The translations under genes were made by a program, and so were the position numbers. Shown here piece by piece: positions 11,822 through 52,619 of a stretch of DNA of 64,000 bases. Position 1 is the first letter of the stretch; every line of letters begins with the position of its first letter. Below the pieces are notes generated by a model, which did not search any database, was not told the origin of the DNA, and was given only the letters and a program-made list of their open reading frames with translations. The stretch is from Candidatus Bathyarchaeota archaeon (GTDB lineage Archaea > Thermoproteota > Bathyarchaeia > TCS64): contig JADHWN010000002.1 in assembly GCA_016783455.1 (NCBI GenBank), positions 25,836-89,835 of the forward strand. Direction: 5' to 3'.

Positions 11822-11898
11822 GGGCTGGTAGTTCAGTTGGTATGAATACTGCCTTGGCATGGCAGGGGTCGGGGGTTCAAATCCCTCCCAGTCCACCA
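11822..11898 (+). tRNA. tRNA-Ala(GGC), provirus integration target
   Basis: Acceptor GGGCTGG/CCAGTCC with G3:U70, discriminator A, encoded CCA; anticodon arm CTGCC-TTGGCAT-GGCAG; T-loop GTTCAAATC. Confidence 0.96.
11886..11898 (+). repeat. attL core, 13 bp TCCCAGTCCACCA
   Basis: 3' end of tRNA-Ala; identical direct copy at 52607-52619. Confidence 0.85.
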
Positions 11899-12030
11899 TT
11901 TAAAATCTCTTAATTGGGTAGTTTTTGGGGTTGTTTTGGGGTTTAAAGCTGGTTAATCTATTCTCTAGTTTTACCCCCCTCAGAGGTTTCCAGCCAAGGT
12001 TTAAATTTCTCGTTACATATAGTTGAATCT

Positions 12031-13656
12031 ATGGGAAGCACGGGCAGCAGAGGCCTCATCCTGGGGGCGCTGATGGACGGAGACCCCATGAGCTGCAGGG
12101 GTATCATGGAGGCGACGGGTCTCCGCAGGTCGCAGGTGTACGGTGCCATCTCTCGCTGTTGGCGTTCGGGGCTCGTACTCCGGACCGAGGAGGCCATCCT
12201 GGAGCATGAGCGCGTCTTCAGGGGTCGAAGGGGCGTTTCACGGCACCTTCATCCCTATCACCTGTATGTCCTCAGGCCGGAGGGCGTGGACGGGGCCTCC
12301 ATGGATGGGAGGAGGTTCGTGTGTTTCTCCGTTGATCACCTGGACCCCAGGGGAGGGGGTAAGATCAGCAAGGCGAGGAGGATCTTGGGCTTCCTCGAGG
12401 AGAATGGGGACGGGGCTTTCTTCTCCACTGATGTCGTGGAGGCTCTCAGCGAGCACGGGGTCACGGTTCAGGATATCATGCCGAACGTCCGCCGCTTCGA
12501 GAGGCAGGGCCTGGTCTACGTGCGGGGGTACAAGTCGGATGATAGGCAGACGCCCTTCAAGGAGGGGTATCTCCTTACCTGGATCGATCAGGAGATACCT
12601 CGGGAGGGTGCCATCGCCGAGGCCGTGAAGCGTACGGACGTCGCCCTCGCGGGTCGGGTCTCCAGCAGCCCCATAATGGAGAGGGTGCACAGGATTCGGG
12701 ACATGGTGCTGGAGCACACGGAGCTAAGGAAGCTGGTGGCTGCCTCCTACATCGAGAACAATCTTGGATGCACCCACTACGAGGTCGAGCACGCCCTGAA
12801 GCGGACCCTCCAGCTCTACCCCGACATGAAGGTGCTGAAGATATTCGGCAACTGGAGGTACTACTACCACACTTCGATGAGCCCGGAGGACCTGGGCGCC
12901 GCGGTGGAGATGAAGAGGAACTACATCCGGAAGGCGAAGGGCCGGGCGAATAGGATAGGGCACAACTGGGAGGCGGTGGCCGAGTGGTTCATCGACAGGT
13001 TCACGACGGGGGCCCGGTTCTGGACCCAGAATCACAGGAAGGGCAGGATGGACCCCCGGAGGATCACGCTGCACCTTCTCAAAGGCGTGGGTGGGCGTAG
13101 GAACGCCGCTGAGGTGGACCGGGTCTGGGATGTCACGCCGGGGCCTTTCGCTCCCACCGTCACGTATGTGCTGAGCTGCAAGTGGGGCCTCGTCGGCAAG
13201 GGGCACGTCGACGACTTCCTCAAGGTGCTAACTTGGAGCAGGGACTTCGGGGTCGACACCGAGGACGGCAGGAAGATCAAAAACGGCATCGTCGGGGTGT
13301 TCGCGGCCAGCGCCTTCAACCCCAGGGAGAACATACAGATGAAGGATGGGTCGATGGTGAGTCTGACCCAGTACGCCGCCAGGCGGGAGCTTCAGATCAT
13401 CACGGCGGCTCAGTTCAACGAGAAGCAGAGGGAGCGGGGTATCCCCAGGAAGGTGACGGTGCAGGCGGTCTGCCGTGTCGCCCGGGATGAGGCGGAGGTG
13501 AGGGAGGTCTTGGACGCCCTCTGGGAGGACCCGGAGCGGGCTGAGGAGATTCTGGGGGAGGTTCGGGCTGAGAACGCTGACATCTACAAGTTCGAGGAGA
13601 TGCTAGAGAACAGCGGGGATGAGCTGACCGGAGCTCACCCGGATGTGGAGGAATAA
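12031..13656 (+). CDS. Multi-wHTH protein with a C-terminal PD-(D/E)xK-like (restriction-endonuclease-fold) domain
   Basis: wHTH-like segments (IMEATGLRRSQVYGAISRCWRSGLV; DVVEAL..VRRFERQGLV); GHNWE...EVDRVW...LSCKW. Confidence 0.55.
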   Translation: MGSTGSRGLILGALMDGDPMSCRGIMEATGLRRSQVYGAISRCWRSGLVLRTEEAILEHERVFRGRRGVSRHLHPYHLYVLRPEGVDGASMDGRRFVCFSVDHLDPRGGGKISKARRILGFLEENGDGAFFSTDVVEALSEHGVTVQDIMPNVRRFERQGLVYVRGYKSDDRQTPFKEGYLLTWIDQEIPREGAIAEAVKRTDVALAGRVSSSPIMERVHRIRDMVLEHTELRKLVAASYIENNLGCTHYEVEHALKRTLQLYPDMKVLKIFGNWRYYYHTSMSPEDLGAAVEMKRNYIRKAKGRANRIGHNWEAVAEWFIDRFTTGARFWTQNHRKGRMDPRRITLHLLKGVGGRRNAAEVDRVWDVTPGPFAPTVTYVLSCKWGLVGKGHVDDFLKVLTWSRDFGVDTEDGRKIKNGIVGVFAASAFNPRENIQMKDGSMVSLTQYAARRELQIITAAQFNEKQRERGIPRKVTVQAVCRVARDEAEVREVLDALWEDPERAEEILGEVRAENADIYKFEEMLENSGDELTGAHPDVEE

Positions 13657-13698
13657 TCCGCATCTTTTATCTTCATCTTCATGTGAATCCTGAATACA

Positions 13699-13851
13699 TT
13701 GGATCTGCTGACTGTTGGGATACTGGTGTCGATTGTCTGCGTCGTCGCGGTCTCCGTGACGGGCGTAATGACGTACCTGAAGCTGGGGGAGCTGATCAGG
13801 GAGCTTAGGATGGCTCACAGGCTCGAGGAAGAGGAGAGGGACGGAAGATGA
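13699..13851 (+). CDS. Small single-TM protein (50 aa, not in the ORF track)
   Basis: TTG start, MDLLTVGILVSIVCVVAVSVTGVMTYLKLGELIRELRMAHRLEEEERDGR; ATGA overlap with the next gene. Confidence 0.6.
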   Translation: MDLLTVGILVSIVCVVAVSVTGVMTYLKLGELIRELRMAHRLEEEERDGR

Positions 13852-14237
13852 GAGGGTATAGTGATTTGAAGGGTGCTTTTCAAGTGAATCCAGTGAAGCG
13901 TATCAAAGATGCAATTAATAACGAGGATTATTTATCTGCCTTTTCTAGTGCTGTAACATATTTTCAATTATTTAGTTACATACTACTAGCACGAAAATTG
14001 AAAGGAAAAATAGGTAGTGAAAAATTAGAGAAATTAAACGTTCCAGGAATAATCATGCTGTCACACGTACTAAAAATAATAGACCAACCAGAATATTGTA
14101 CAATGTGGGATGTTTTAAGCGCTAGAAATAAGTTGGTTCATCCAAATGAAGGTGTAATGCATGATCCAACAGATGAAGAGAAACGAGCATTATCTAAGTC
14201 AATACTCTGTATTGGAAAATTGTTGCAAAAAATCTAA
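13848..14237 (+). CDS. HEPN-domain protein (putative RNase)
   Basis: Helical 129-aa protein with the Rx4H motif RNKLVH; low GC. Confidence 0.6.
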   Translation: MRGYSDLKGAFQVNPVKRIKDAINNEDYLSAFSSAVTYFQLFSYILLARKLKGKIGSEKLEKLNVPGIIMLSHVLKIIDQPEYCTMWDVLSARNKLVHPNEGVMHDPTDEEKRALSKSILCIGKLLQKI

Positions 14238-14314
14238 ATTGTCTTCACTTAGGTCTGCCCGCTAGCGCCGGGGCTTGTTCTGAGGCGTATTTAGCGAGGG
14301 AAAGTGATCAGAAC

Positions 14315-14500
14315 CTATCGTCGACGATCTCGTGCGGGTCCGGCTTCGTTCATGTTCTCTCTGGCCATCTCGACGGCGTCCCTGCTCAGCCCTGTGAGCG
14401 CGCTGAGCTCGACTGTGGTCGCGGAGCCCCTGTCCTTGAGGGATATGAGGACCCTGCGCTCGTTCTCGTGCAGCTGTGAGGCTACTTCTTCGGGGTTCAC
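14315..14500 (-). pseudogene. pheS: Fragment resembling the N-terminal wHTH of archaeal phenylalanyl-tRNA synthetase alpha subunit
   Basis: LHENERRVLISLKDRGSATTVELSALTGLSRDAV; similarity stops after about 46 aa; host-like GC. Confidence 0.5.
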
Positions 14501-14704
14501 GGTCTCATCAACCTACCATTACAGGCTTGTGACTCATCTTAAAAATTGTACTGGATAAAATGAATTGGCTTATATTACGGTATAAGCAGAAAGCGACATA
14601 CTTTCTAATGTTCTTTATTTGCTTAACGCGTTCAAACACCTATATTCTTAACATTTACTATTATTATCAAAAAATTATAAATATAAGTTATACTGTTAGT
14701 TTAG

Positions 14705-15529
14705 GTGGAAATTTTGAAGCAGAAGGTTAGAATGGTAATCGCGTTAGTAACTCTCATTTTCCTAAACATGGTATCCACAATTGCTTTTACAGGAGCAGAT
14801 GACGAAACTGATACTGAAGTTGGTATATGGTGGGAAAACTACAATGGCACAGAAGATCAACTGAATTATACTGATGAAGATGCTAGATCATTCTCAGATA
14901 ATCTAGTTGATGATGGATGGACAGAGTTGTTTGATCGAGGAAACGCAGATTCAGATGAGGAACACTGGGTCAATTCGGCAAATAACGGAAGTGATAATTC
15001 ATGGGTGGATGACTGCGACTTCGTGTACTGGACCGGTCACGGCCAGGCAACTCTGTTCCATGTTGAGTTTCCTAGTATACCAATCTACAACGATTGGGAA
15101 ATAGTAGAAGCGGAAGAATGTACTTGGGGAGACGACGAAGGCGATCTGGAATGGGTTTTTCTAAATTCATGTGAAGCTTTACATGCCAATTACGTGTCGG
15201 ACTGGGATGATGCCTTTGCTGGGCTTCATGGGATATGCGGATTTCACTCGTTATCTCTTTGGGACCCAACATATCGACTGGGTAACGCTACAGCAAACTA
15301 CTTGGTATCTCAAACATGTATCGGAGGTTCTTGGAAAAAAGCAACTGAGTGGTATTTCGAAGAGATAGATAAGGGCAGCGTTACTGCCGCATGTTACTCA
15401 GCCTTAATCAACAGACCGGGATACAGCCCCTTCAACTATTACTATGAGTCTACAGACGGCATGTGGCCCGATTACGGATCAGGCGGAATCACATTATCCG
15501 ACATAGAATATACCGATTGGAATTGCTAG
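14705..15529 (+). CDS. Secreted DUF6345-like protein (possible caspase/gingipain-fold peptidase)
   Basis: Signal peptide; VDDCDFVYWTGHG, WGDDEGDLEWVFLNSC, GLHGICGF motifs. Confidence 0.7.
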   Translation: MEILKQKVRMVIALVTLIFLNMVSTIAFTGADDETDTEVGIWWENYNGTEDQLNYTDEDARSFSDNLVDDGWTELFDRGNADSDEEHWVNSANNGSDNSWVDDCDFVYWTGHGQATLFHVEFPSIPIYNDWEIVEAEECTWGDDEGDLEWVFLNSCEALHANYVSDWDDAFAGLHGICGFHSLSLWDPTYRLGNATANYLVSQTCIGGSWKKATEWYFEEIDKGSVTAACYSALINRPGYSPFNYYYESTDGMWPDYGSGGITLSDIEYTDWNC

Positions 15530-15540
15530 GAGATGATAAA

Positions 15541-16530
15541 ATGAGGAAAAAAGACATAGTATGGAGCACCATGATAATCTCAAGTATCCTTCTACTGTCG
15601 AACATCGCATTAACCATGAGCAAAAAAGAGCAAGCCGTTGCACCTACAAAATACATACTCCCACTGACGCTGGGGTCAACCACTACAGACGAGACACTAA
15701 CAGTGATACGCACCTGTTCACTATCCCCTAAATATGAGATCGTCCCAGTGCTGCAAGCTAAGAAGACATTAGCCACCGATGATGAACTCTTAGTTCTCGC
15801 CAAGAAATACGGGGTAATCTCGTCATCCGCTAAGATACGTGACTTCGGCGGCGGAGACAAGGTGCTATTCGGCAACGGTAAATCCTTCCACACACACGGC
15901 CTGGACCACTTCATGCTATCATACGATGATGTAACACATCTAAACAACACGATATCGGAAGAGTCAGCGAAAAAGGTTGCAGACGAATTCGTAGCGAGGC
16001 TTCTTAAAGACAACCCTGACTACCCGTGCACGATCGAATATGACCGGACTGTAATAGGGTCTAGACGTATAAGTACAAATCCTGAGACTGGCGAAAAGAT
16101 AGAGACGATCCATGCATTGAAAGTGAATTATGACCTATACTATGATGGAATACCAATCTATGGTAATGGCGCGGATGTCTCCGTCTCAGTGTGTAACTTC
16201 AGAATAGTAGGACTGGAGGTGCACCTACCAAAAATCTTCTTCAAGCATAAAACCAGCGATTATAAAACTCCTGATCAGGCTTTTCAGGAGATGCTTGATA
16301 GTCCTAAGCTATCTTTCGGAATACGGTTCAATAGGGATAGAAATGAATCAACTTTCATCGAGCGCCACGTTGATACTATTGAGCTTTGTTACTATTACCA
16401 ATTCACACACCCCGAAACAGAGACTGAACTCCTATTATATTATCTCATCTCAGGGACAGACTATCTGAAAACCAGCAAGGGAATCGTAGACGAGGACTAC
16501 TTCTATACGCTTATCCCGGCTACTACCTAA
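15541..16530 (+). CDS. Membrane-anchored extracellular partner of the DUF6345-like protein
   Basis: Start ATG 15541 after GGAG; N-terminal TM helix; ISEESAKKVADEF and TPDQAFQEM (PepSY/YycH-like helices). Confidence 0.6.
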   Translation: MRKKDIVWSTMIISSILLLSNIALTMSKKEQAVAPTKYILPLTLGSTTTDETLTVIRTCSLSPKYEIVPVLQAKKTLATDDELLVLAKKYGVISSSAKIRDFGGGDKVLFGNGKSFHTHGLDHFMLSYDDVTHLNNTISEESAKKVADEFVARLLKDNPDYPCTIEYDRTVIGSRRISTNPETGEKIETIHALKVNYDLYYDGIPIYGNGADVSVSVCNFRIVGLEVHLPKIFFKHKTSDYKTPDQAFQEMLDSPKLSFGIRFNRDRNESTFIERHVDTIELCYYYQFTHPETETELLLYYLISGTDYLKTSKGIVDEDYFYTLIPATT

Positions 16531-16566
16531 TCTTACATTTTTTTAACAAGCATAATATAAGCAGGA

Positions 16567-17067
16567 CTATTCCTTTATCCTGGGCTTCGAGACTATCTGG
16601 ATGGTTTTCCCCTCGGAGTCCTTCATGTACAAGTAGGTGATGATCCCCAGGAGGTCGGTGTACTCCGAGGTCTCCACTCCCTTCCCCTCCAGGTAGGCCT
16701 TGAGGTATCCCTGCATGTTGGCGAAGGTGACTCCCTCCCCGACGACGATGCCGTCGGTCTGGTAGAACTCGCCTGGTGAGAGAACCCCTTTCGTCTCGGC
16801 CCATGAGCACGCCTTCTCGATGATCTCGTCGCTGCCAAGGGTCCTGAAATACGGTGGCTCGTCTCCGTCTTCGACATTGCTCAACGCCTCACCTATCCAG
16901 CCTGGGGCCCACCGCTTAACCAGTTCGCCTACCATGCTGCAGCAGACGGGGCATATAGTGCATTTCCCGAGAGCGCTCTCGTGTGACACTCCGCCCTCTT
17001 TCAGCAATCTACCGCACCATTCACACCTGGGCCAGTACTCATCAGGTATATCCCTTTCATTTGACAT
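16567..17067 (-). CDS. Hypothetical protein with N-terminal zinc finger
   Basis: CEWC...CTICPVCC. Confidence 0.6.
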   Translation of the reverse strand: MSNERDIPDEYWPRCEWCGRLLKEGGVSHESALGKCTICPVCCSMVGELVKRWAPGWIGEALSNVEDGDEPPYFRTLGSDEIIEKACSWAETKGVLSPGEFYQTDGIVVGEGVTFANMQGYLKAYLEGKGVETSEYTDLLGIITYLYMKDSEGKTIQIVSKPRIKE

Positions 17068-17130
17068 ATACGATACCTCTTAGGATATCCGGATGGTATA
17101 TTCTACCCAGAGGGAGGGTATTAAATATAC

Positions 17131-17148
17131 TGTATGGATATCCATACA
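17131..17148. promoter_or_regulatory. Perfect 18-bp palindrome TGTATGGATATCCATACA, probable operator
   Basis: Immediately downstream of the TATA-like TATTAAATAT (17119-17128) and upstream of the AbrB-type gene. Confidence 0.7.
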
Positions 17149-17163
17149 ATAAGGGGGATGATT

Positions 17164-17319
17164 ATGCCAATTCAGTTTGAAATGAGCGTCGTCAAGGTTG
17201 GTAATAGCCTAAGAATGACTATTCCAAAGGAAATCGTAAGAGCAATGAACTTGGAAAAAGGAGACACGCTGCTAGTAGGCATGAATAACGGGGACATGAT
17301 AGTCAAAAAGAAGATTTGA
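17164..17319 (+). CDS. AbrB/MazE/SpoVT-family DNA-binding protein
   Basis: VVKVGNSLRMTIPKEIVRAMNLEKGD. Confidence 0.88.
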   Translation: MPIQFEMSVVKVGNSLRMTIPKEIVRAMNLEKGDTLLVGMNNGDMIVKKKI

Positions 17320-17420
17320 CTAACGGCTACACATCATCGAAAGCACCTGCGAATGCAAATAGGATCGGGCTCACACTGTGAAAACATATAAATATCTAAT
17401 ACATTTAACATTTATCTGCG

Positions 17421-18086
17421 ATGAAATCTATCATATCGCATACGTTATCTAAGCGTATCAATCTACTTACATTAGCAGTGGTTCTTGTATTCAGTTCATT
17501 CTTGGCTCCTTTAGCTTTAGCAACGAGGTACAATGTATATGGACAACATGACAGTAAATCGTACTATGGTACTAGAGGATATAAACGAATATACGATCTC
17601 GATGTTGTAGATGAAAGTATTGTAAATGGTTTTGTATGTATAGCCTCAAGCTCGGATCAGTTCATGTGCGTTGGATACTACCAAGGTTTAAATCCTGATG
17701 ACGATTGGTATGACGAACCTCGCTATTATTGGGACAGGAAATTACGTGGTGTTTATGACTTCGATGATGTAGGCGCCGCAAGTGAGAATACAAATCATGA
17801 GTTTAGAGTAGAACTGCATTCAAATGGCTACATGCTAGCCTATGTGGACTCCTCATGTAAAAAGTCTGAAAGCGGGTACTCCTATATTGCACACTATTCA
17901 AGTGGTCAAGGAGAATCGGATAATATTCAAAATGAAATGTATTACCATTTCTGGGACATGAAGAAATGTAATCAGTACATCACTTGGAGTTCATTTACAG
18001 ATACAGATTTCGGAAAATACCCAACCTCTGGTAACCCATACTCATGGCTAGAAATTGACGATGACGAATGGTACTTCAGTGATTAG
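17421..18086 (+). CDS. Secreted beta-rich protein (possibly neprosin/glutamic-peptidase-like fold)
   Basis: Signal peptide ending ALA; rich in Tyr, Trp and Asp; YGTRG, FMCVGYYQG and GQGES loosely match neprosin-like motifs. Confidence 0.45.
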   Translation: MKSIISHTLSKRINLLTLAVVLVFSSFLAPLALATRYNVYGQHDSKSYYGTRGYKRIYDLDVVDESIVNGFVCIASSSDQFMCVGYYQGLNPDDDWYDEPRYYWDRKLRGVYDFDDVGAASENTNHEFRVELHSNGYMLAYVDSSCKKSESGYSYIAHYSSGQGESDNIQNEMYYHFWDMKKCNQYITWSSFTDTDFGKYPTSGNPYSWLEIDDDEWYFSD

Positions 18087-18097
18087 GATGTGAGATA

Positions 18098-18724
18098 ATG
18101 AAAAGTAAAAAAGGAAAATCTATCTTTGGACTAATCATCGTAGTTCTACTACTTCCGTCAATCATGTTATTATCTAGCCTTAATACAAAAGAAAAAGGAA
18201 CAGACGAAGAAACCAGGTATCTATATCCCTCATTTCCAGCATTCTCTAAAATAAGTAAAAAGGTTGATCTAGGTGATTTAGATAAAGCGATAGATTTCGA
18301 TGTAAAAATACCACCAGTTCTGGGAGTTCCCGATGAAGTCCTCGTGGAACAAGGTAATGAACGAGTGTGGATAATTTATACGATGTCTAAAATCGATGAC
18401 CATCAGCTTTTACAGTTTCTTAACAGCTCAGATTCTGAGGTTCTTATACGAAATGCTGGGGGTATTGTGCTGACAGTTTGGAAACATAATATGACCTATG
18501 AAGAATCTGTGAATGTTACTGAAAGTGCTATTATTGCTACAGAGGGAAAACTTGAAAGGGTAAACATCAATGGCTATGTAGGTTCAATGGGAGGAGATGA
18601 CGCTCATCTCATCTATTGGAGTACGGAGTCAACCTGGTACAAACTATCAGCAGGTGTAAAAGAAGACTATTCAAACCTACTAGAAATAGCTAGAAACATC
18701 GATATGAAACGAGTTACCCAATAA
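18098..18724 (+). CDS. Membrane-anchored protein with DUF4367-like C-terminus
   Basis: N-terminal TM helix; VNINGYVG...LIYW...WYKLSA...LLEIARNI. Confidence 0.6.
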   Translation: MKSKKGKSIFGLIIVVLLLPSIMLLSSLNTKEKGTDEETRYLYPSFPAFSKISKKVDLGDLDKAIDFDVKIPPVLGVPDEVLVEQGNERVWIIYTMSKIDDHQLLQFLNSSDSEVLIRNAGGIVLTVWKHNMTYEESVNVTESAIIATEGKLERVNINGYVGSMGGDDAHLIYWSTESTWYKLSAGVKEDYSNLLEIARNIDMKRVTQ

Positions 18725-19067: not shown

Positions 19068-20588
19068 TTAAATTGTCCTTGCGATGGGCTTCGAGGGCGG
19101 TGGGACCTGATCGGCAGCATACACCGCTAAGGCTAAGGACCAGAACCTGTCGTCGTTGGTTCCCTGGGGATGGTTGAAGAGCAGCTTCCCCGACTTCGAC
19201 AGCTCGTACCTCTCCAGGTTCAGCTCATGGAACAGGTCGGGGTCGAAAGGGATGTGTAGCAGGGGCCTGAGGCCCACCCTATTTCCCTCCTCGTTGAAGC
19301 ATCCCTCGGGGCAGACGGTCATCCAGGCCTCCTCCTCGCCATCCACGTAGCCCCTCCAGCCGCAGCTGGGGCAGACTGCGCTCCTCATCTTCTCCTTGAG
19401 GCACGTGGCCATAGCCTCCTTGCTCTGGTCGGTGAAGTTGACGCCGGTGACGTTGCGCAGGCCCCCCCGTTCCATGTCCTCGACGATGTAGTCCCCGACC
19501 CCGGTCTTGTCGGCGTAGACGGCGTTGACTGTGCGCCAGCGGTCCTGGAGGCGCTTCATGTAGCCTATCACGGCGCCGTAGCTGGTCTCCAGGGGGAACC
19601 TGTGGAGGTGGCGCAGGTACAGGTGACCATGGAGCCTCTCGACGACCGCCACCACGGAGTAGTCGACGTGCTTCCCGAAGTCGGCTCCCAGGTAGAACTC
19701 GCCCCTGGGGCCTACGTCGTAGTCCAGGTAGTCGAGGGCGGAGTCCTGGGCGAGGGTGATGAGGCTGGTGGGCAGCCAGACGTTGAGGTCCTCGGTCCAC
19801 TCGCATAGCATCTCCCGTTTCCACCGGGCGGGGTCCCCGGCCAGCTGCTTCTCTATCATCTCCACAACCTCGGGGCTGAGGGGTCCCTGGGGAGGCATGG
19901 CCTCGGTGTAGAGGACCCTGTGACGGCTGAACTGGTCATACGCCGGGTCGTGAAACATCTTGTAGAACACGCTGTCCGTGTTCCAGGGCGTCGACTCGGC
20001 GTAGAGATAGCCGTTCGTCGTGTTCAGCGTGAAGAGTACGGAGGTGTAGAGATCCTCGTCCTCCCGGATGAAGTTGCACTCCATGAGGTAGATCACCTTC
20101 GCCGTGTGGCCCCTGATGGTCTCGGGGATGGGGGACTCTGCAAGGATCTGGCTGCCATTCCTGAACCTGATCACCGTCCTGAGTACGTTCCTCTCCCCGA
20201 CGGCGTACCTGAAGAAAGCGGGGTCCCCAGTCTGAAGGCGCTTCAGGTGCTCCGCGAGGGCCTTGAAGGCGATGTTCTTCACCTGGTCATACTTCGGCGC
20301 CGTCACCAGGATGAGGCTCCCTGGATACCTGAAGGCCAGATAGAGGAGCTTCGCCATGCCGTTGAAGGTCTTCCCGGTCTGACGGGCCTGGACGTTGGCG
20401 ACGAAGTGCCCCCTGTCCCGGAGGAAGGGCCACATGTACTCGAAGGGCTCGTACCCCAGCCACTCCACGCAGAACCGGACGGGGTCACTCGGCAGGATCT
20501 TCCTCGACTTCGTAACCGATTTCTCTAGTGCCTCTTCCTGCCTGTGTTTCCCGACTCTTCTCCTTAAGTTCCTCAAGCTCACTTTCAA
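19068..20588 (-). CDS. terL: Terminase large subunit
   Basis: Walker A ARQTGKT, IRG, variant Walker B YLMEC, STP coupling motif, RNase H-like GADFGKHVDYS and NDDRFWSLALA; Cys-rich insertion. Confidence 0.92.
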   Translation of the reverse strand: MKVSLRNLRRRVGKHRQEEALEKSVTKSRKILPSDPVRFCVEWLGYEPFEYMWPFLRDRGHFVANVQARQTGKTFNGMAKLLYLAFRYPGSLILVTAPKYDQVKNIAFKALAEHLKRLQTGDPAFFRYAVGERNVLRTVIRFRNGSQILAESPIPETIRGHTAKVIYLMECNFIREDEDLYTSVLFTLNTTNGYLYAESTPWNTDSVFYKMFHDPAYDQFSRHRVLYTEAMPPQGPLSPEVVEMIEKQLAGDPARWKREMLCEWTEDLNVWLPTSLITLAQDSALDYLDYDVGPRGEFYLGADFGKHVDYSVVAVVERLHGHLYLRHLHRFPLETSYGAVIGYMKRLQDRWRTVNAVYADKTGVGDYIVEDMERGGLRNVTGVNFTDQSKEAMATCLKEKMRSAVCPSCGWRGYVDGEEEAWMTVCPEGCFNEEGNRVGLRPLLHIPFDPDLFHELNLERYELSKSGKLLFNHPQGTNDDRFWSLALAVYAADQVPPPSKPIARTI

Positions 20589-20820
20589 GCAGCTCCACGT
20601 CGACGTCCCGGACGATGGTGTAGCAGAGGCGCACCGCCTTGATCAGGGTGTCCATGGCGTCCAGCTGGATGTCCTCGTAGCCCTCCGGGTCGGCTATGAT
20701 GGCGTCGAGCTCCTGGATGAGCAGCTCAAGCCTGTTCAGGTACTGGGCCCTCTTAGCCTCTGGGTCGATGCGGACACGGCGCGCCGTAATGTTGACGACA
20801 ACCGTCTCGGCAGCGTGGAC
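20485..20820 (-). CDS. Putative terminase small subunit (start uncertain; ORF open to 21009)
   Basis: Helical/coiled-coil protein immediately upstream of and overlapping terL. Confidence 0.45.
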   Translation of the reverse strand, partial: VHAAETVVVNITARRVRIDPEAKRAQYLNRLELLIQELDAIIADPEGYEDIQLDAMDTLIKAVRLCYTIVRDVDVELLESELEELKEKSRETQAGRGTREIGYEVEEDPAE

Positions 20821-40581: not shown

Positions 40582-40621
40582 TTTTCTCGTGTTTTACCTT
40601 ATTATCCTATGAAATAATCTT

Positions 40622-43861: not shown

Positions 43862-44111
43862 GCTTCTCCCTCTCCCTGCTGTAGACCTCGCCGCGGCCCA
43901 GAGGCGACTTCATGCTCCGGACACGGGGGGCCTCCTGTATCCTCATGATGAGGCTGATCCACCGGGACACCGTCTCCCAGCTCGAACCCGTCCTGCGGGC
44001 GATCTCCTCGACGGTGACGTAGTTCCGGACGGGCAGGGCGTCCATTATCGCCCAGAATATCTCCTCATTTGACTTCTTCGACTTCCGCCTGCTCATGAAA
44101 ACGGCCTCCAA
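43842..44111 (-). CDS. Small HTH protein
   Basis: TVEEIARRTGSSWETVSRWI. Confidence 0.7.
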   Translation of the reverse strand: MEAVFMSRRKSKKSNEEIFWAIMDALPVRNYVTVEEIARRTGSSWETVSRWISLIMRIQEAPRVRSMKSPLGRGEVYSREREKHGAKAA

Positions 44112-44261
44112 CCTCCCTGTGAGAGGGGTACGGCCTCCACTCTGAATGGGGTGAGTCTGGCTCTACAGCCCGACTGTCCCCCAGAATATTGAGTCTGGGT
44201 ATCTTCACTTTCAGGAACATACCCTATTTTGGACACAGCTTACCCTCCAGACAAAGTGCGT

Positions 44262-44525
44262 TCATCTGACCTCCTCCATGTGGGCCATCAGCTCATCCCT
44301 CCTGGTGGCGACGAACCCACACCTGCAGTAATAGGCAAGGCCGTGAGGGCCCCTGTGGCGTCTATGGCCTGCGGGCTTCCCGCAGATACAGCTCTCGTGT
44401 ATGACGTTGATCTGCTTCCCGCACCCCCAGCAGTACTTGACGATTGAGGATACGACGGTCGCCTCATCTCCTGTCTTGCAGTGGGGGCAGGCCACGGTTA
44501 GGGGCATGGGCACGAGTACAGTCAA
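44262..44525 (-). CDS. Small zinc-finger protein
   Basis: CPHC, CWGC, CICG, CRCG...H. Confidence 0.6.
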   Translation of the reverse strand: MTVLVPMPLTVACPHCKTGDEATVVSSIVKYCWGCGKQINVIHESCICGKPAGHRRHRGPHGLAYYCRCGFVATRRDELMAHMEEVR

Positions 44526-46042
44526 CCAGCCGCCACCTCCGGGGCCTGGTCCTGGACGAACTGCTCAAGGGTCATCTGCGAGAACCGGGTGTCCCTCGCC
44601 AGCCTTCTGATGAGCACAGTATCGGCGCCGTGGCGCTTGCAGAGAGGGCAGAGGGTCGGAGGATCCCTGGAGTCCCCACGCTCCACGTAGAGCTCCCTCT
44701 GTACACGCCTGACCAGCCCCCCAGCTTCGTATTCGGAGAGGCCGTAGGCCACAGCTATCTCCCAGACGTATACGTCAAGGTTCGCCTCGGGATGCTCCAC
44801 GAGATACTCTCTGACGTACTCCTCCGCAGGCTGCTCCGGGGCTACAGGACCGCGAGGTTCGTGCACAGGTTCACTTCTCGGCTTCTCCGGGAGCATCTGA
44901 GGTTCGAGGGCGCCAAGATCCGCCTGCTGAACTACGGCCTCAGGCTCCTCGACGGAGTAGTCGATGTCCTTGATCTGGTTCCACTGCTGCAACGTGTTCC
45001 ACTCACCCGAGCCCCTGTGAGGCCTCTTCGACTCCAAGCCGTAGGCGACCTCCCTGATCATCTCGTCGTTGATGGGCAACCCCAGGAGGATCTCCGCCCT
45101 CTCGGGCTCCATGACCCGGTTATAGGCGGCGTAGAACAGGAGACCGTACTTGACGGCCCTCTGGATATCCTCCAGCTGATCCCTGTGCTCCCTGCACCAC
45201 TGCCTCACATCCCGGGCCTTCACAGTGGAGAGCCCCTGCCTCTCGGGGAGGGGTGGCCTGATCATGTTCTGGGCCTCGCTGGACCGCATCCTCAGGGGCT
45301 CAACCCTCCTGGTCAGGTCGTCGAAGTCCTTCACCGGCTCAACCTCGAATTCCTCCAGCTGCTCCTTGACCTCGGAGACAGGCTGACGCTCCTGCCGCCT
45401 CATGAACTCCCGGCGCACCTCGCTGAACAGCATGGATATCTGGGTCGACGGAGGAAGATCCTCGTGGACCTTCACGTAGTGCTCTATCTCCCTGCCCAGC
45501 TCACAGAGCTCCTCCTGTGTGGCACCAAGGTTTAGGACGGCTTGGGCCTGTCTGAGACTCATACGGTGGACTGTCGCGCGCGACAGAACTTCCTCCAACC
45601 GGAGAATAGCTAGGCGACGTGAAACCCACTGCTCCCCAGCGTTACCAGGGCGCCCTATTCGTTCAGCTAGTTCCCTCTGAGAGTGGCCGTGCTCCTGGAT
45701 CATGTGCCTCAGCCACCGCCCCCTGTCGTACTCTGAGAGGGGCAGCCGGTTCTCGTTCTCAGCCCACTGGGCAAGGAGAAACCTCTCCCCGTCCAGCTCC
45801 TCGACGATGGCGTTCACCTCATCGACACCTATGAGCTCCAAAGCCTCCAGCCGGCAATCACCGAACACAAGCTCGAAGTCGCCCTCAATCTCAGGGTGAG
45901 GCCTCACCTTGATGTCCGACTGCTGGCCATCCTCCCTCAGGCTACCGGCGAGGCGCTCGATCTCTTCGGCCGGCTTATGGCTCCGTATGACGAACTTAGG
46001 CCGGTGTATCCGGCTGATTGATACCCGAATAGACTGGCTCAC
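44522..46042 (-). CDS. ParB/RepB/Spo0J-family protein with C-terminal extension
   Basis: LAGSLREDGQQSDIKVR, LVFGDCRLEA, AENENR, HTH SQRELAERIG..VSRRL. Confidence 0.85.
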   Translation of the reverse strand: MSQSIRVSISRIHRPKFVIRSHKPAEEIERLAGSLREDGQQSDIKVRPHPEIEGDFELVFGDCRLEALELIGVDEVNAIVEELDGERFLLAQWAENENRLPLSEYDRGRWLRHMIQEHGHSQRELAERIGRPGNAGEQWVSRRLAILRLEEVLSRATVHRMSLRQAQAVLNLGATQEELCELGREIEHYVKVHEDLPPSTQISMLFSEVRREFMRRQERQPVSEVKEQLEEFEVEPVKDFDDLTRRVEPLRMRSSEAQNMIRPPLPERQGLSTVKARDVRQWCREHRDQLEDIQRAVKYGLLFYAAYNRVMEPERAEILLGLPINDEMIREVAYGLESKRPHRGSGEWNTLQQWNQIKDIDYSVEEPEAVVQQADLGALEPQMLPEKPRSEPVHEPRGPVAPEQPAEEYVREYLVEHPEANLDVYVWEIAVAYGLSEYEAGGLVRRVQRELYVERGDSRDPPTLCPLCKRHGADTVLIRRLARDTRFSQMTLEQFVQDQAPEVAAG

Positions 46043-46098
46043 GGCCTACATCCTCCGAGCCGGCGCCCCTGGGGACCCGCACCTGTGTCCACACTTTT

Positions 46099-46446
46099 TC
46101 ATGTCATGCACCTCGTGTGCAACCTACATATCACCAGGGACACCGGCTCCCGTATGGGGAAGTACCCCAGGGACTCGAAGTGCTCCCGCACGTCCCCGGG
46201 GATCCCTCCGAACTTTTCAGCGAGCAGCCTGAACATGGCGGCCTTCTGCTCCTCTGAGAGGCGGCCCAGGTCTCCCTCGAAGAACCTCCCCTGCCCGTTC
46301 CTGTGGGCCACGGGATGCTTGATGGGCATCCGCGCCTCAGGATCCACCTCAGCCCACATGTCATACCTGGGGTCCAGGCAGGAGACCATGGCCCAGCACT
46401 CGCACTCAGACATCGCCCCGGGCCTCCTCGAGGCGGAACCTATCAA
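46099..46446 (-). CDS. Hypothetical viral protein
   Basis: In operon, same strand. Confidence 0.5.
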   Translation of the reverse strand: MIGSASRRPGAMSECECWAMVSCLDPRYDMWAEVDPEARMPIKHPVAHRNGQGRFFEGDLGRLSEEQKAAMFRLLAEKFGGIPGDVREHFESLGYFPIREPVSLVICRLHTRCMT

Positions 46447-48226: not shown

Positions 48227-48277
48227 CGACTGGGAGGGCCGAAAGGGCTCGCTAAGGATAATATCCTTACCCGGTCG
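48227..48277 (+). ncRNA. Structured RNA (three-way junction) upstream of DUF3800, DUF3800-RNA-motif-like
   Basis: Closing stem CGACTGGG/CCCGGTCG, GAAA-capped hairpin (48236-48250), hairpin TAAGGAT-AAT-ATCCTTA; GC-rich within AT-rich DNA, about 25 nt after a TATA-like TATTAAA. Confidence 0.65.
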
Positions 48278-48313
48278 ACTATTTTAAAAGTCTATTAATA
48301 CCATGTATTTCAA

Positions 48314-49054
48314 ATGCGCATTTTATATTTAGATGAGTCTGGCGGTCCAAATAGTTGGGACAATCAAAAAAACTTCGTATTAGGAGGAGTTGCTGTTCAT
48401 GAAGGGCAAATATATTCCTTGACGCGAGATCTAAATGACCTCCAAGAAAAATATTTTCCTGGCATTAGAATACCAATAGAATTTCATGTAAGACCCATAA
48501 GACAGGGGAAAGGACCACATTTCAACAAATTTAGCTATGAAGAACGTCACAATATTATTGATGAGGTTTATGAGATCATCAGAACATGTGGTTTTCCGAA
48601 TATAATTCCTTTCGCTACAGTACTTGATGTATCATCTGCCATTAATTCGAATCAAGTATGTCGTGATTGTTTTGAAGATGTATGTAAAAATTTTAACCTG
48701 TATCTATTAGATCAATTTAAAAAAGGCTTTCCAAGCAAAGGCTTGTTAATTATTGATCGAGGTCGTGAAGGACAATATCGTCAACATTTTGGCGAATTAA
48801 AAAAGTCTGAGGCAGTCGAGGAATATTTGGGGAATATTGTTGACATCCCTTATTTTGCGGCATGTAGAGAAACGCGCATGCTACAAATTGCAGATTTTAT
48901 TTCTAATGCGGTTTTCAGATATTATGAGTGGAATGTTACAGACAATTTTGATAAAATAACCTCTCTATTTTTCAGGGGATCATACCGTTTTCCTGTCAAT
49001 GGATTAAATCATATAACAAAGGATGAATCGTGTCAATGCTGCGTTTGTAGATAA
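48314..49054 (+). CDS. DUF3800 family protein (RNase H-like fold)
   Basis: LYLDESG, FVLGG, EFH, LIID, LQIADF motifs. Confidence 0.88.
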   Translation: MRILYLDESGGPNSWDNQKNFVLGGVAVHEGQIYSLTRDLNDLQEKYFPGIRIPIEFHVRPIRQGKGPHFNKFSYEERHNIIDEVYEIIRTCGFPNIIPFATVLDVSSAINSNQVCRDCFEDVCKNFNLYLLDQFKKGFPSKGLLIIDRGREGQYRQHFGELKKSEAVEEYLGNIVDIPYFAACRETRMLQIADFISNAVFRYYEWNVTDNFDKITSLFFRGSYRFPVNGLNHITKDESCQCCVCR

Positions 49055-49277
49055 AAACTTGAGCGTGACTCATGAGTTGTCATTGGTTCGCGTTTTGGAT
49101 TAAAGTCAACCATTTATTCTCACCTTCTATCTCGATTCCACAGGCTTCCGCTGGGGTCTTGCCTTTGCGCGCGCGAGCGAATTCAATAATTATGGGTAAA
49201 ATGGTTTTAATTCGTTTTTTATGATTTAAGGGCAGTTCTTGGGCGCATCATCGCTAAAAATTTACGAGCGCGCACTA

Positions 49278-50666
49278 TTAATTCCCTAATACGAAAATGT
49301 CATAGAGAGGAGCACCAACCCAGTATGAGCTTGTCTCATAAAATCCTTGATCAGTGTATTTAGTAATTTCAGCAAACTGAACGCTTACTTCATCTACTTC
49401 CAAATCTCCAAGTGGGTATCGTATCTCTATCGTGTAGATCCCGTCAGCTCCAGATTCTCCATCGCCTGTATGACTATATTGAGAAACTGCTTCATATGTT
49501 GCCCACAAATTTTCGCGATATGGATTCTCAGTTGTCCAACGTATAGTAGTTCGGGGTTCACCGTTAAGATAAAGATAAAGGGCGTCTATCTGATAGTCTT
49601 CACTCAAATAGTCATCGGGGATAACTGCACAAACATAGAGATTGGAATCATTGATCATTGCAGAGATTTCCATGGCCTTATTTTGTTTATCCCAAGCGGA
49701 TAGTTCAGAACGAATTGAATTATGATAAGTGACATGATAAACTAGAGTCGTGTTCTTAAAAGGCGACCATTCACCGATTTCCACGAATCCATCTATATTA
49801 GGTATATCATATACGTCGATGTAAGCAGACCAGGAACCCCCTATCGTTGGAAGATTTGTAGTTATAGTGCCCAGAACCCAGATTTTATTCAGATCATCTG
49901 TTGACAGATAATATTCCACCTTAACAATACCCCATAGATGTTCTTGATAACCATAGTAATGTACTGATTCCTCTCGTGTTATGGTTATTCCTGAGCTGCC
50001 AACAAAATACCTCTCTTCTCCCCTTCGCCAAGCATGTCTCTGACAGACTCTATCACCACTGAAGTCAAGCGTAGCCTCCCAAATGATGCCATACTTTGGT
50101 ATCAGAAACTCCCATGTCTTTGCAGTTCCAGCAGAAAAATTGTATTCAATGCTTTGAACATAGCTATCAATAACAGTTGAATCAAGGCAACTCAATAGGT
50201 CAGCATAGCTCTGATTTAAGCTTTCAAAAGACGCCTGGAGGACATCATAGTTTTTTTCGATTTCCACATATGCATCATGGAGTTCCTCATATTCACCTTC
50301 AATATATTCAATATAGTCTTGCAGGCTATTTATCTCCGCTTCAAGGTCCATAACAGATTGTTGAAGCACTAGATTTTCCTTATCTATTACAAGCATTTCC
50401 ATGTATCGCTCTTCAAGAAGTGCAACGGCTCTCTGTTCCTCAACAAGCAGCTCCTGAGTAGAATCCAACTCGGCTGCAAGGCCTTGAAGGGTCAAATATA
50501 AGGAATCACATTCTGCCTCAAGTTGATCTCTCTCTTCCGTTAAACTCGATACAGGTGAATTGCCGACCATGTACCCGGCCCCGGCTCCTACGATGAGCGC
50601 GATGACGACGGCGATGGAGATAATCCTATAATCAAAAACGGTCCTCAAAGCATCATTCGATCCCAC
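49278..50666 (-). CDS. Membrane-anchored coiled-coil extracellular protein
   Basis: N-terminal TM helix, long acidic coiled coil, beta-rich C-terminus. Confidence 0.65.
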   Translation of the reverse strand: MGSNDALRTVFDYRIISIAVVIALIVGAGAGYMVGNSPVSSLTEERDQLEAECDSLYLTLQGLAAELDSTQELLVEEQRAVALLEERYMEMLVIDKENLVLQQSVMDLEAEINSLQDYIEYIEGEYEELHDAYVEIEKNYDVLQASFESLNQSYADLLSCLDSTVIDSYVQSIEYNFSAGTAKTWEFLIPKYGIIWEATLDFSGDRVCQRHAWRRGEERYFVGSSGITITREESVHYYGYQEHLWGIVKVEYYLSTDDLNKIWVLGTITTNLPTIGGSWSAYIDVYDIPNIDGFVEIGEWSPFKNTTLVYHVTYHNSIRSELSAWDKQNKAMEISAMINDSNLYVCAVIPDDYLSEDYQIDALYLYLNGEPRTTIRWTTENPYRENLWATYEAVSQYSHTGDGESGADGIYTIEIRYPLGDLEVDEVSVQFAEITKYTDQGFYETSSYWVGAPLYDIFVLGN

Positions 50667-51093
50667 GTTTTGTCACTCCATTGTATGGGGTGCATCACCG
50701 ATTAAGACTTACCGTACAATGATGATAATAGTTGACGCATTAACTCACTTCCCATATCCGCGCGCGCAGCAGGTTCTACGGGTAGGAGTGTATCAGGTAG
50801 AAACGGAAAAGTCACTATCGAAGCTAATAATGACGAAATTTAAAAAAAAGGTACAATGGTTCTCAGAATAAAAATTAATTCACTATAATTGTTCTGGTAT
50901 AAGGGAGAAGTGCGCACGTAGGAGTTAGAGTCGCGCGCGCATGTTGAAAGAACATTAGGATTCAACGAGCAGGATCACGATCAATACCCCGATGATCACA
51001 GGTGACAGGGTAGGAGCCGCCCGCGCACGCAGGCCTTATAGGGACTTCGATCACCGTTAATTTTAAATACAGAAAAAAGAAATTTGAACCAAA

Positions 51094-51654
51094 ATGTCCG
51101 CACACAAAAGCACGAATATTGTAGTTCTTTTAATCCAAGGCTTAATAATTCTACTTGGATTGTTATTTTTCATATCAGGTTATTTACATGGCATAAAAGA
51201 AGTTCTAACATTTGGGATTGGTGAATTATCGATAGCACTAGGAACATTACTCCTAGCTCTCTATACATACAGGTTGGCTAATGTTGAAATTGAAGAAAAC
51301 AGAAAAGATAGAGAACATAATAAAATACGTGAAAAATTATATTTTTATTCTGAACTTATATCAGGAATGCCAGAAGGTGATATAAATTTAGAAGATTTAG
51401 AAAATATGTCATATACTATCAAATCTGGATATATTGATTTCCTCCGAAGAAACTCACATATTAACGTTAGATATCCGTTTTTATCGGAACCAGAACTAAA
51501 TAAAGCATTATCACAAATTATGCCAAAAGTCACACATCCACGAACCTTACGAAACCAATTAACTGAAGAGGAAGAAAAAATTCCGAACATCATTAAACTC
51601 ATACATGAAGACTTCGAAAAATTAAAAAAAGGATATAACAAATTAAACGAATAA
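51094..51654 (+). CDS. Hypothetical two-TM membrane protein
   Basis: Two N-terminal TM helices, low GC. Confidence 0.6.
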   Translation: MSAHKSTNIVVLLIQGLIILLGLLFFISGYLHGIKEVLTFGIGELSIALGTLLLALYTYRLANVEIEENRKDREHNKIREKLYFYSELISGMPEGDINLEDLENMSYTIKSGYIDFLRRNSHINVRYPFLSEPELNKALSQIMPKVTHPRTLRNQLTEEEEKIPNIIKLIHEDFEKLKKGYNKLNE

Positions 51655-51698
51655 ATCATAATCATACTTTTTTGCTATTCGCGCGTGCGTGCGTCTCC

Positions 51699-51986
51699 CT
51701 AAACCTCAACGACCCAATAGAGATATCTATCATCCTGAGACACATACCTCCTCCCAAGCAGGTCCTTCAACGCCCTGTCGACGGTCATCCTCCCAATACC
51801 TAAAGACCGCCTTATTGATACGAACGTCTGGGGCTGGGTCTTCACCAAGTGCAGGTAGATCAGCTTCTCGGAGGGTGCACGAATGGTCAGGATCCTCTCG
51901 TAGTGAGCCCTCCTCAGCTTCACGCTCAGGGCTGGAACCAGCGCCTCGGCGAGGCTCTCGACCAGGATACTCCACTCGCCCTCCAT
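51699..51986 (-). CDS. Small wHTH protein
   Basis: SEKLIYLHL..QTFVSIRRSLGIGRMTVDRALKDL. Confidence 0.65.
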   Translation of the reverse strand: MEGEWSILVESLAEALVPALSVKLRRAHYERILTIRAPSEKLIYLHLVKTQPQTFVSIRRSLGIGRMTVDRALKDLLGRRYVSQDDRYLYWVVEV

Positions 51987-52038
51987 CCTACATCAAGACC
52001 AGCTCAATGAATGTAACTGAGGTCGCAATACTCAGGCC

Positions 52039-52332
52039 CTAACCTAGACAGGCCTTCACCTTATCGATGAGAATCATGAAACTCCTCCCCTTCTCCGTCG
52101 GATAGAAAAAGGGCGGCCTCTCCGAGAGCAGCCCACGCTCGATCAACAACGCAAGGTAGCTCCGAATCACGCAGAAGTTCAGGTTCGCCCTGTAGACCAT
52201 CTGGGTCTTCCTGGCTCCTCCCTCCGCCGCTCCGATGAGGTCGGCGCATATCTCAATATTACTCCGTCTCAAACCATCCACGCCCCCATTCAGTGTTAGG
52301 GACAAATGCGGCAGCCCTCTCGGGTCAGTCAC
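52039..52332 (-). CDS. Archaeal wHTH regulator (COG3432-like)
   Basis: RRSNIEICADLI..GARKTQMVYRANLNF..YL..LIERGLL..TEKG. Confidence 0.82.
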   Translation of the reverse strand: MTDPRGLPHLSLTLNGGVDGLRRSNIEICADLIGAAEGGARKTQMVYRANLNFCVIRSYLALLIERGLLSERPPFFYPTEKGRSFMILIDKVKACLG

Positions 52333-52606
52333 GCCTCATATCCCATCTCATTCCCTGAGTCGGCATGGACCCAGATTCCTAGAGATAAGTATCAATAAAA
52401 TATAAAACCATAGGAAACCAGCGTCCATAGGAGAGAATCAGATACCTACGACCGCACGAGCATTCTGAACCCCGAGTATGAATGACCTGACGTCTCCTCC
52501 GAATGCCTGTACATGCCCAAGATTAAGAAAATGATGCATGTGTGCCACGATGATAATGACTCAGTCTTTACACGTATCGATAAATATTGACGAACCTGTC
52601 GACCTA

Positions 52607-52619
52607 TCCCAGTCCACCA
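52607..52619 (+). repeat. attR core, 13 bp TCCCAGTCCACCA
   Basis: Exact copy of the tRNA-Ala 3' end; host genes follow. Confidence 0.85.

Follow-up and report, generated by a model that had tools for sequence, protein, structure and literature searches.

The DNA analysed here, a stretch of 64,000 nucleotides (hereafter the window), belongs to an archaeal assembly (G000; 2.19 Mb in 83 contigs, 57.5% GC, 75% complete) and carries an element of about 40.7 kb with the features of a tailed provirus at the 3' end of a tRNA-Ala(GGC) gene. The tRNA gene (11822..11898, plus strand) is intact, encodes its CCA, and is recognised by both ARAGORN and Rfam (62.8 bits). Its last 13 bases, TCCCAGTCCACCA, constitute the left attachment core (attL; 11886-11898, plus strand) and are repeated exactly in the right core (attR; 52607-52619, plus strand). 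These are the sole two matches in the window with one mismatch tolerated, for which the expected count is 0.11 and two matches were reached by 1 of 100 shuffles; the exact 13-mer likewise has only these two copies in the whole 2.19-Mb, 83-contig assembly. The repeat brackets a tyrosine integrase and the hallmark genes of a tailed virus, as a preliminary description of this DNA had proposed.

Both edges of the element can be placed by comparison with other sequences. On the left, the tRNA-Ala gene is identical through the CCA in four genomes of the genus, with divergence setting in from the very next base. On the right, three contigs of sequencing run X7 match the window up to 52619 and then diverge; as this break falls at the final base of the core, it supports 52619 as a recombination boundary. 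Similarity to the sister genome G004 starts at about 52591, some 16 bases before the 13-mer, and extends into the flank and not further to the left. We found no viral genes beyond the two repeats in the window. Host genes do resume right after attR, as had been claimed: an M19 dipeptidase gene starts 37 bp past it, and the window from 54.0 to 63.2 kb is ~90% identical to contigs of two sister genomes. We read the sequence from 52620 onward as the probable native downstream flank of the tRNA-Ala gene.

The integrase (46602-47771, minus strand) is recognised by PF00589 (E 2.4e-18) and phrog_1 (E 4e-27), and the catalytic R, HxxR, W and Y can all be read in its translation, so that its earlier designation as intact holds. 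Among solved structures it finds a weak match to the P. abyssi XerA (4a8e), and 50 metagenomic homologues were recovered at E<=1e-10, the best of them 94% identical. Its start lies 4.8 kb from attR, which also agrees with the preliminary description, and this distance is accounted for by a low-GC cargo block that adjoins attR. Downstream of the integrase is an early or maintenance block (40045..46446, minus strand) of small open reading frames (ORFs) together with a protein combining ParB_N and helix-turn-helix (HTH) domains (44522-46042, minus strand; profile matches) and a 618-aa protein (41520-43376, minus strand) in which profile matches and reading of the sequence distinguish an N-terminal P-loop ATPase, a coiled coil and a C-terminal domain.

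Virion genes and the proposed integration

From a mechanical ORF list of the element 47 were picked, all of which are open; every viral core ORF lies on the minus strand, and the late operon is densely packed, with no frameshift seen in this set. The order in the direction of transcription (47771 to 19068) is integrase, ParB-like protein, ATPase, portal, scaffold, HK97 capsid, neck, tube, chaperone, short tape measure, receptor-binding protein, two small conserved proteins, an ABC-ATPase/GNAT gene, a candidate small terminase and the large terminase subunit TerL. The head-neck-tail gene set named in the preliminary description is thereby recovered, with TerL, portal, scaffold, capsid, tube, neck/tail-completion and fibre/spike proteins identified. 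All the genes considered in this section are on the minus strand.

TerL (19068..20588) matches Terminase_6N (E 6.7e-7; 29.6 bits against a cut-off of 22) and phrog_2 (E 1.5e-34), with a weak match to Terminase_6C. The portal protein (34303..35541), encoded directly upstream of the scaffold and capsid genes, is supported by Phage_portal (E 2e-9), whose 37.6 bits fall just under the cut-off of 39.1, and by phrog_12 (E 4e-4). It is followed by scaffold or decoration-like proteins (32863..34319), one of 135 aa and another of 349 aa with a coiled coil, for which the matches are weak. As the assignment of the major capsid protein (MCP; 31925..32854) is weak by sequence (Pfam Phage_capsid, E 0.0095), it was examined by structure. 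This protein has 383 homologues, and an alignment with 28 of the 120 homologues listed was used to obtain an AlphaFold2 (AF2) model with a pLDDT of 81.7 and a pTM of 0.78. Foldseek comparison of the model with the PDB retrieved 392 chains at E<=0.001, headed by the capsid of Haloferax tailed virus 1 (HFTV1; 8qpq, E 5e-13) and followed by encapsulins and phage capsids of the HK97 fold, pointing to the same fold for the MCP. An identical capsid protein is recorded on contigs of up to 198.8 kb.

The region between capsid and tube (28619..31598) encodes, by profile matches, neck and tail accessory proteins: a weak tail-terminator-like protein, a fibre-like protein of 110 aa and a spike-like right-handed beta-helix protein of 422 aa, along with small ORFs. 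The tail tube protein (27726..28610) is of the two-domain type; it matches Phage_tube_2 with E 1.4e-5, at 25.3 bits where the cut-off is 27, and the best matches of its AF2 model among 48,161 chains are tail tubes, namely those of P74-26 (Z 14.1 over 213 residues), T5 (pb6), SPP1 and HFTV1 (Z 8.6). It is followed by an acidic protein of 108 aa (27394-27720), which occupies the position of a tail chaperone, and by a tail-completion/Neck1-like protein (26808-27185) that matches phrog_5 (E 2.3e-11); phrog_9046 (E 3e-14) was also matched in this pair of genes (26808..27720).

The remaining tail genes are read largely from sequence character and gene order. A helical protein of 220 aa with a hydrophobic segment (26146..26808), conserved in two of the related loci described below (L039 and L042), is a candidate short tape measure. 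The adjoining ORF (23414..26440) encodes a large beta-rich protein of 1008 aa with a ConA-like lectin domain (Laminin_G_3, E 3e-12), probably a distal-tail or receptor-binding protein, that is 54% identical in the same two loci. The 220-aa and 1008-aa ORFs overlap by 295 nt (26146-26440), and the overlap is kept in L042; it might reflect either a later start of the long ORF, near residue 152, or a programmed frameshift of the kind found in tail chaperone genes. The true start of the long ORF is probably the one near residue 152. Two other proteins were considered as the tape measure and discarded: the 618-aa coiled-coil protein on account of its N-terminal P-loop and location in the early block, and the 1008-aa protein on account of its beta-rich nature and lectin domain. 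Beyond the latter lie two small conserved tail-module proteins of 102 and 127 aa (22771..23392), conserved in relatives and without a family match, a soluble ABC-type ATPase fused to a GNAT acetyltransferase (21308..22774) that adjoins TerL throughout the lineage, and a protein of 174 aa (20485..21009). The last of these, encoded directly upstream of TerL and with matches in 10 of 21 related loci from metagenome-assembled genomes (MAGs), is a candidate small terminase by position only, with no family match in the profile libraries, PHROGs and NCBIfam included. We infer that the 220-aa and 174-aa proteins may function as tape measure and small terminase, respectively. Searches of all profile libraries with the window proteins gave no match for a sheath, a protease, a lysis gene or a small terminase.

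On the strength of these features we consider it likely that the region is a temperate head-tailed virus of the Caudoviricetes, siphovirus-like in its tail, of an archaeon of the Bathyarchaeia, integrated at tRNA-Ala(GGC). Under this interpretation, the integrase would have recombined a viral attP with the host tRNA-Ala(GGC) at a 13-bp core that the attP has in common with the 3' end of that gene; the outcome would be an unbroken tRNA at attL and, 40.7 kb from it, a second copy of the 13 bp at attR. Three low-GC blocks would have been acquired later, one at each end beside an attachment site and one between the early and the late genes. Targeting of tRNA genes by phages and elements with tyrosine integrases was reportedly treated by Williams in 2002. 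The arrangement resembles that of tRNA integrators of the lambda, P4 and P22 type, with an attachment core equal to the tRNA 3' end, a tRNA restored at attL, a PF00589 integrase and cargo beside the attachment site. It differs from them in that the integrase lies 4.8 kb from the attachment site and in that TerL is at the tail end of the late operon rather than before the portal.

The TerL lineage and other tailed viruses

A TerL query of a collection with one genome per species returned 21 loci, 18 of which are titled as Bathyarchaeia or Bathyarchaeota MAGs; the remaining three bear the titles Patescibacteria group bacterium, Pirellulales bacterium and 'uncultured archaeon'. Two of the named MAGs reappear, with the same coordinates, as G050 and G051, which are placed in the GTDB family of the host; together with the distribution of titles, this agrees with the proposal that the host is a Bathyarchaeon. 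TerL is 90% identical in the locus with the Patescibacteria title (L033) and 61% identical in that with the Pirellulales title (L047), and both contigs are probably binning errors. The MAG loci of the relatives reach 10 kb to either side of TerL, and 14 of the 47 element ORFs, all from 19.0-31.6 kb, occur in the same order from tube to TerL in such loci (L039, L042, L041, L044 and L036). The location of TerL at the far end of the tail operon, conserved in order among relatives, and the integrase away from the attachment site together justify the earlier remark that the gene layout is atypical. The ABC-ATPase/GNAT fusion is kept beside TerL in most MAG and IMG/VR relatives, at 45-87% identity. 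In L039, a tRNA-Ser gene lies on the opposite strand 2.2 kb beyond TerL, in the same geometry as in the window.

IMG/VR yielded no match to the single TerL sequence; a TerL alignment retrieved from it 35 contigs, of which 33 have 38-46% identity and several reach lengths of 30-39 kb. In common with the element, these relatives encode both small tail proteins, a tube and, beside TerL, the ABC-ATPase/GNAT gene; one of them, L073, shows the usual adjacency of TerL and portal. Within the wider host group, TerL matches at E<=1e-20 were found in 32 of 61 host relatives (G000 counted), and matches of at least 59% identity in 16 genomes, all of which are among the 37 searched genomes of the host family. 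The lineage is thus common in the host family, and it is without formal classification. The integrase is not common to these relatives: among 5 of their genomes a single one had it, at 38% identity, and within the genus it was found in G001 only, at 49% identity and with a stop. The dN/dS ratio ranges from 0.11 to 0.19 across three TerL pairs and stands at 0.17 in the portal and 0.18 in the tube, showing that the structural genes are under purifying selection.

Fragments of a second provirus copy are present in G000 itself: C50 has TerL (81% identical) and the ABC/GNAT gene (67%), C51 the genes from the tube to the lectin protein (61-79%), and the end of C23 the portal (76%). This second portal (C23:68102-68920) sits at the very end of a host contig of 68.9 kb. 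Such a 60-82% identical copy could reflect either polylysogeny or a mixture of strains. A crude k-mer finder detected no CRISPR arrays in G000.

The GenBank phage collection, of 50,697 records, contains no close relative. TerL finds its best matches there in bacterial phages, at 20-29% identity, and a tblastn search of the same records with the MCP found a sole match, Caudoviricetes sp. vir524 (BK063669; 26.7% identity, 84% coverage, E 1e-10). The latter shows a distant likeness in its capsid, and its host, given as Methanomicrobiales, belongs to another archaeal phylum. The best structural match of the capsid is HFTV1, an archaeal siphovirus for which capsid and tail structures exist (PDB 8qpq, 8qsy and 9fkb; E 5e-13, TM 0.59-0.62), and its tail protein is also among the tube matches; however, the sequence identity is only 13%, and HFTV1 is a lytic virus with a haloarchaeal host.

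Tailed proviruses of Bathyarchaeia have already been published, and the present provirus is a further such virus rather than a new kind of thing. BATPV1, BATPV2 and six others are described, 10-63 kb in length and with defence or metabolic cargo, all eight delimited by MCP, integrase, direct repeat and tRNA (PMC11705971). Compared by those descriptions, they are alike in being head-tailed, in coming from Bathyarchaeia MAGs and in their delimitation by attachment sites and tRNAs; none of the accession prefixes named in the portions seen of that source occurs among our 21 TerL loci. Two families of head-tailed Bathyarchaeia viruses, Fuxiviridae and Kunpengviridae, appear in the 2025 taxonomy of the ICTV, the international committee for virus taxonomy (PMC10848311, PMC12451623). 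As there described, both share with the element a Caudoviricetes affiliation with HK97 MCP, portal, TerL and tail tube and the Bathyarchaeia link, and Kunpengvirus also has an integrase. Going by the same descriptions, TerL and portal are adjoining genes (27 and 28) in Fuxivirus, a virus of 31,982 bp from hot springs, whereas they are ~14 kb apart here, and Kunpengvirus encodes PolB, MCM and a dNMP kinase, none of which was found here in profile searches. A 2026 survey counts 770 archaeal proviruses, 266 of them in Thermoproteota (PMC13573593). The present lineage is abundant in public MAGs and metagenomes and may already be among the published proviruses, so that the undescribed virus group suggested in the preliminary description is a possibility only.

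We tentatively propose, as a conjecture going beyond the identification of the provirus, that it might serve as the complete reference genome of a temperate siphovirus lineage, unclassified and of family rank, which in one Bathyarchaeia family would be more common than any other tailed virus. Its markers would be the candidate TerS and TerL genes, placed last (3') in the tail operon, and the ABC-ATPase/GNAT fusion, and its members would shuttle differing low-GC cargo, possibly including new defence genes such as that for an 856-aa protein, into tRNA hot spots. The Bathyarchaeia are uncultured and among the most abundant archaea of sediments, and few of their viruses have defined ends. The provirus reveals no new mechanism, but on one long contig it combines both attachment sites with an intact integrase and a virion module that looks full; it could anchor the classification of a lineage present in 16 of 37 host-family genomes, it supplies primers for tests of attP and attB in samples containing it, and its cargo genes without known function are candidates for defence testing.

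State and history of the insertion

Runs X3, X6, X7 and X8 were compared with the window over 40000-59999 by means of Logan contigs, which are unable to show rare forms. At least part of 50-55 kb is present in 20 of the 22 listed runs (11 studies). One contig of X3, which may be the source run, spans 40000-52701 with 0 differences, and in X8, a run of another study, attR is crossed by a contig of 522 nt (52367-52888), also with 0 differences. Runs X6-X8 cover element and flank alike in a patchy manner at a depth of 2-6; that they hold about half of the sampled words was considered as a sign of an empty site and ruled out on account of this patchy, low-depth cover of both. A variant in X7 lacks 51965-52399 and 52440-52568. 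The loose ends of X7 past 52619 were likewise rejected as attP, the consensus agreement being 0.62 and the sequence, by eye, unlike the left end of the element. Two JGI metagenome contigs have a 29-nt word fitting attR or attB, and both are occupied: L092 is 99.9% identical, and L091 is 93.8% identical with a 25-bp deletion.

The neighbourhood of the tRNA-Ala gene in sister genomes is more varied. The complete genome G002 has a full tRNA-Ala (C1:1794295-1794371, loci L026/L029) and, 280 kb away and inverted, a 47-nt copy of its 3' part (2074235-2074281), an arrangement suggestive of a decayed element that was divided by a large inversion. The flank after the 47-nt fragment resembles the right flank of the window in short patches only, which is suggestive. 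Along the left end of the element (11899..12030), about 110-170 bp are ~81% like the sequence that follows tRNA-Ala in G002 (window 11899-12010). Following the 13-mer, contig C71 of G004 resembles window 52630-52690 and 54027-57165 at ~87-90%; of the dipeptidase gene, which is deleted in this contig, the last ~35 nt are left, and no integrase was detected in that 88%-complete assembly. In G001, the closest sister genome, tRNA-Ala is followed by other genes (L027 8554-16503; G001:C196), namely a 450-aa ORF without family, an HD-CE and TPR protein and a DUF2130 protein, which presumably belong to another integrated element. As for dipeptidase synteny, the gene alone matches in G002, G003 and G017, and none of the 47 element ORFs has a tblastn match in 10 sister loci around tRNA-Ala, the attR relics and the dipeptidase gene. 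We read this pattern as indicating that tRNA-Ala(GGC) may be a recurrent integration site in the genus, the sister genomes carrying other elements or attachment-site relics, and that the G002 and G004 sequences would be relics of related elements at this hot spot. These relics equally allow an old, inherited insertion, and two alternatives were therefore kept.

Several observations weigh against our interpretation of the region as a temperate virus delimited by the two cores. Neither attP nor an empty attB was seen in the Logan contigs of the four runs, in which rare forms are undetectable, or in the 2 of 2 metagenome contigs. The preliminary description had suggested looking in related genomes for tRNA-Ala directly beside the dipeptidase gene; in G001-G004 and G017 no such arrangement was found, nor any joining of tRNA-Ala to the right flank that would represent an empty site. 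The 13-bp repeat is short, the relic repeat at the same tRNA in G002 being 47 bp. The ~170 bp after tRNA-Ala in G002 resemble the left end of the element at ~81%, and this likeness in a genome without an integrase may mean that the attachment sequences are older than this copy of the virus. Contig C71 of G004 has the 13-mer together with 12 of 16 upstream bases at the homologous site, beside an MFS transporter gene upstream. Independent existence of the 13-mer at 52607, which the preliminary description had named as counter-evidence, is thus partly borne out: no copy is found elsewhere in the assembly, but G004 has the 13-mer and arm without this virus. The early genes and those of the cargo blocks were not found in the loci of the relatives, which is weak evidence as the MAG loci span only 10 kb on each side of TerL. 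The AF2 model of the tube is poor (pLDDT 50, from a 6-sequence alignment), and the small terminase, tape measure, protease and lysis functions are a matter of position or sequence reading, with no family match. The putative siphovirus-type tail thus draws on a tube fold supported by this pLDDT-50 model, the lack of a sheath family match in the libraries and a tape measure inferred from the 220-aa protein.

The first alternative is that the provirus is fixed, cryptic or domesticated, an old insertion, passed on vertically, that no longer excises and is retained on account of its cargo or of some function related to particles. It would explain why all junction-bearing contigs of independent samples are occupied, why a diverged variant (L091, 94%) has the same junction and why attachment-site relics occur in sister species; the depth of the element contig in X3 (32.6, against 29.2-34.4 for the flank contigs, a contig-level figure) and the lack of recognised lysis genes in library searches are also in keeping with it. 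However, the 47 ORFs are open and the late operon is tight with no frameshift seen, the catalytic residues of the integrase and both attachment cores are intact, and the dN/dS values of packaging and structural genes, at 0.11-0.19, are in keeping with continued viral use. Moreover, the second, 60-82% identical copy in the MAG and the many copies in other genomes speak for ongoing spread of the lineage. We accordingly regard a fixed provirus as unlikely; the element may still be able to excise and form particles.

The second alternative draws on the mosaic composition. The viral core, of ~24 kb, has a host-like GC content of 0.56-0.64, and is interrupted and flanked by three low-GC blocks of ~16 kb in total, at 13.8-19.0 kb (0.40-0.49), 36-40.6 kb (0.31-0.39) and 48.2-52.6 kb (0.38-0.41), with sharp GC steps at ~13.7, 19.0, 36, 40.6 and 48.2 kb. 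The claim of a complete ~40.7-kb provirus therefore holds for the gene set, which looks complete with intact ORFs, while the length itself is a mosaic of the ~24-kb core and the ~16 kb of low-GC DNA. Such a mosaic could also arise as a composite island, in which the virus core arrived inside or beside what an older element had left at the hot spot (170 bp on the left, perhaps 12-19 kb, and attR with its arm), the repeat bracketing the accretion as a whole. Besides the sharp steps, this view can appeal to G002, where the left-end 170 bp and the 47-nt tRNA fragment occur with no integrase anywhere in the complete genome by PF00589, to G004, where the attR arm and core occur without the virus, and to L037 and L039, where TerL lies 2-4 kb from host-like genes or a tRNA as against 7.2 kb here. 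Against it, there is no third or degenerate copy of the core at the internal GC borders: a scan with 20 bases of the tRNA end, allowing up to 4 mismatches, found no third copy, and no exact repeat of 11 bases or longer pairs the candidate internal composition borders. The sole integrase in the 40.7 kb is on the strand of the viral genes and directly upstream of the early genes, the variant L091 (94%) keeps the same right-end genes beside attR, and cargo beside attachment sites and between modules is ordinary in prophages. These considerations make a composite island rather improbable in our view. Finally, a repeat of 13 bp arising by chance, with the provirus ending at other positions, is scarcely credible, for, short as the repeat is and although 1 of 100 shuffles gave two matches with one mismatch, the exact 13-mer occurs only twice in 2.19 Mb, one copy being the tRNA 3' end and the other the exact spot at which the G004 flank and X7 break, and no viral gene lies outside the repeats.

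Low-GC blocks and flanking DNA

The genes outside the viral core are largely devoid of recognisable families. Next to attL, a 541-aa protein with two winged-helix (MarR/TrmB-like) regions (12031..13656, plus strand; MarR_2, E 9e-7), of host-like GC, is a candidate regulator without a homologue in the loci of the relatives. The first low-GC block (13848..18724, plus strand; GC 0.40-0.49) encodes a DUF6345/caspase-like protein and at least 6 ORFs without family. The DUF6345 protein (14705-15529, plus strand; E 1e-33), which also has a weak caspase match (Peptidase_C14), could from its sequence be a protease-based module for defence or abortive infection. The second block (36808..39883, plus strand, opposite to the core; GC 0.31-0.39), which at 36808-39883 has a GC of 0.31-0.33 against 0.575 for the genome, encodes proteins of 856 and 171 aa, neither of which belongs to a Pfam, PHROG, PADLOC or NCBIfam family; the ESM Atlas features of the 856-aa protein resemble bacterial hypothetical/TPR proteins of 1000-1100 aa, a likeness that serves as a lead only. 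Searches of NCBIfam and PHROGs also returned nothing for the 541-aa protein and for one of 355 aa.

The third block (48227..52332; GC 0.38-0.41) contains a DUF3800 gene (48314-49054) directly preceded by a DUF3800-VI RNA motif (48227-48277; Rfam RF02915), which scores 40.8 bits where the gathering score is 35. The same block encodes a coiled-coil protein of 462 aa, a membrane protein and a winged helix-turn-helix (wHTH) protein recognised by a profile match (52039-52332). A search of the cargo for defence systems with PADLOC gave only weak coiled-coil and P-loop noise. Within this block, the 37-nt intergenic segment at 49182-49218 is met by loose contig ends, which in X3 and X6 lie to either side of it and in X8 behind it, and the summed depth of the 667-nt bin at 48671-49337 is raised in X3 (64.5 versus 32.6) and X8 (20 versus ~2). 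The segment may be a short repeat common to other DNA in those samples.

The 5' side of the tRNA gene has its own insertion. In G001, whose flanks are ~93% identical, the sequence corresponding to window 984-5443 continues directly into tRNA-Ala, which makes window 5444-11806 an additional block lying 5' of the tRNA. This block (6.4 kb, GC 0.45-0.52) is absent at this position from G001, G002 and G003; it encodes an ABC-2 permease and ATPase, a PKD and beta-lactamase-fold protein and wHTH regulators, and contains a duplication of ~0.5 kb (8089-8609 versus 10605-11005, 83-92% identical). Further upstream, at 247-341, lies a 95-nt tRNA that ARAGORN leaves unnamed, with its anticodon read as 'cgga'; its equivalent in G002 and G003 is called tRNA-Pro(CGG), and the gene probably contains an intron.

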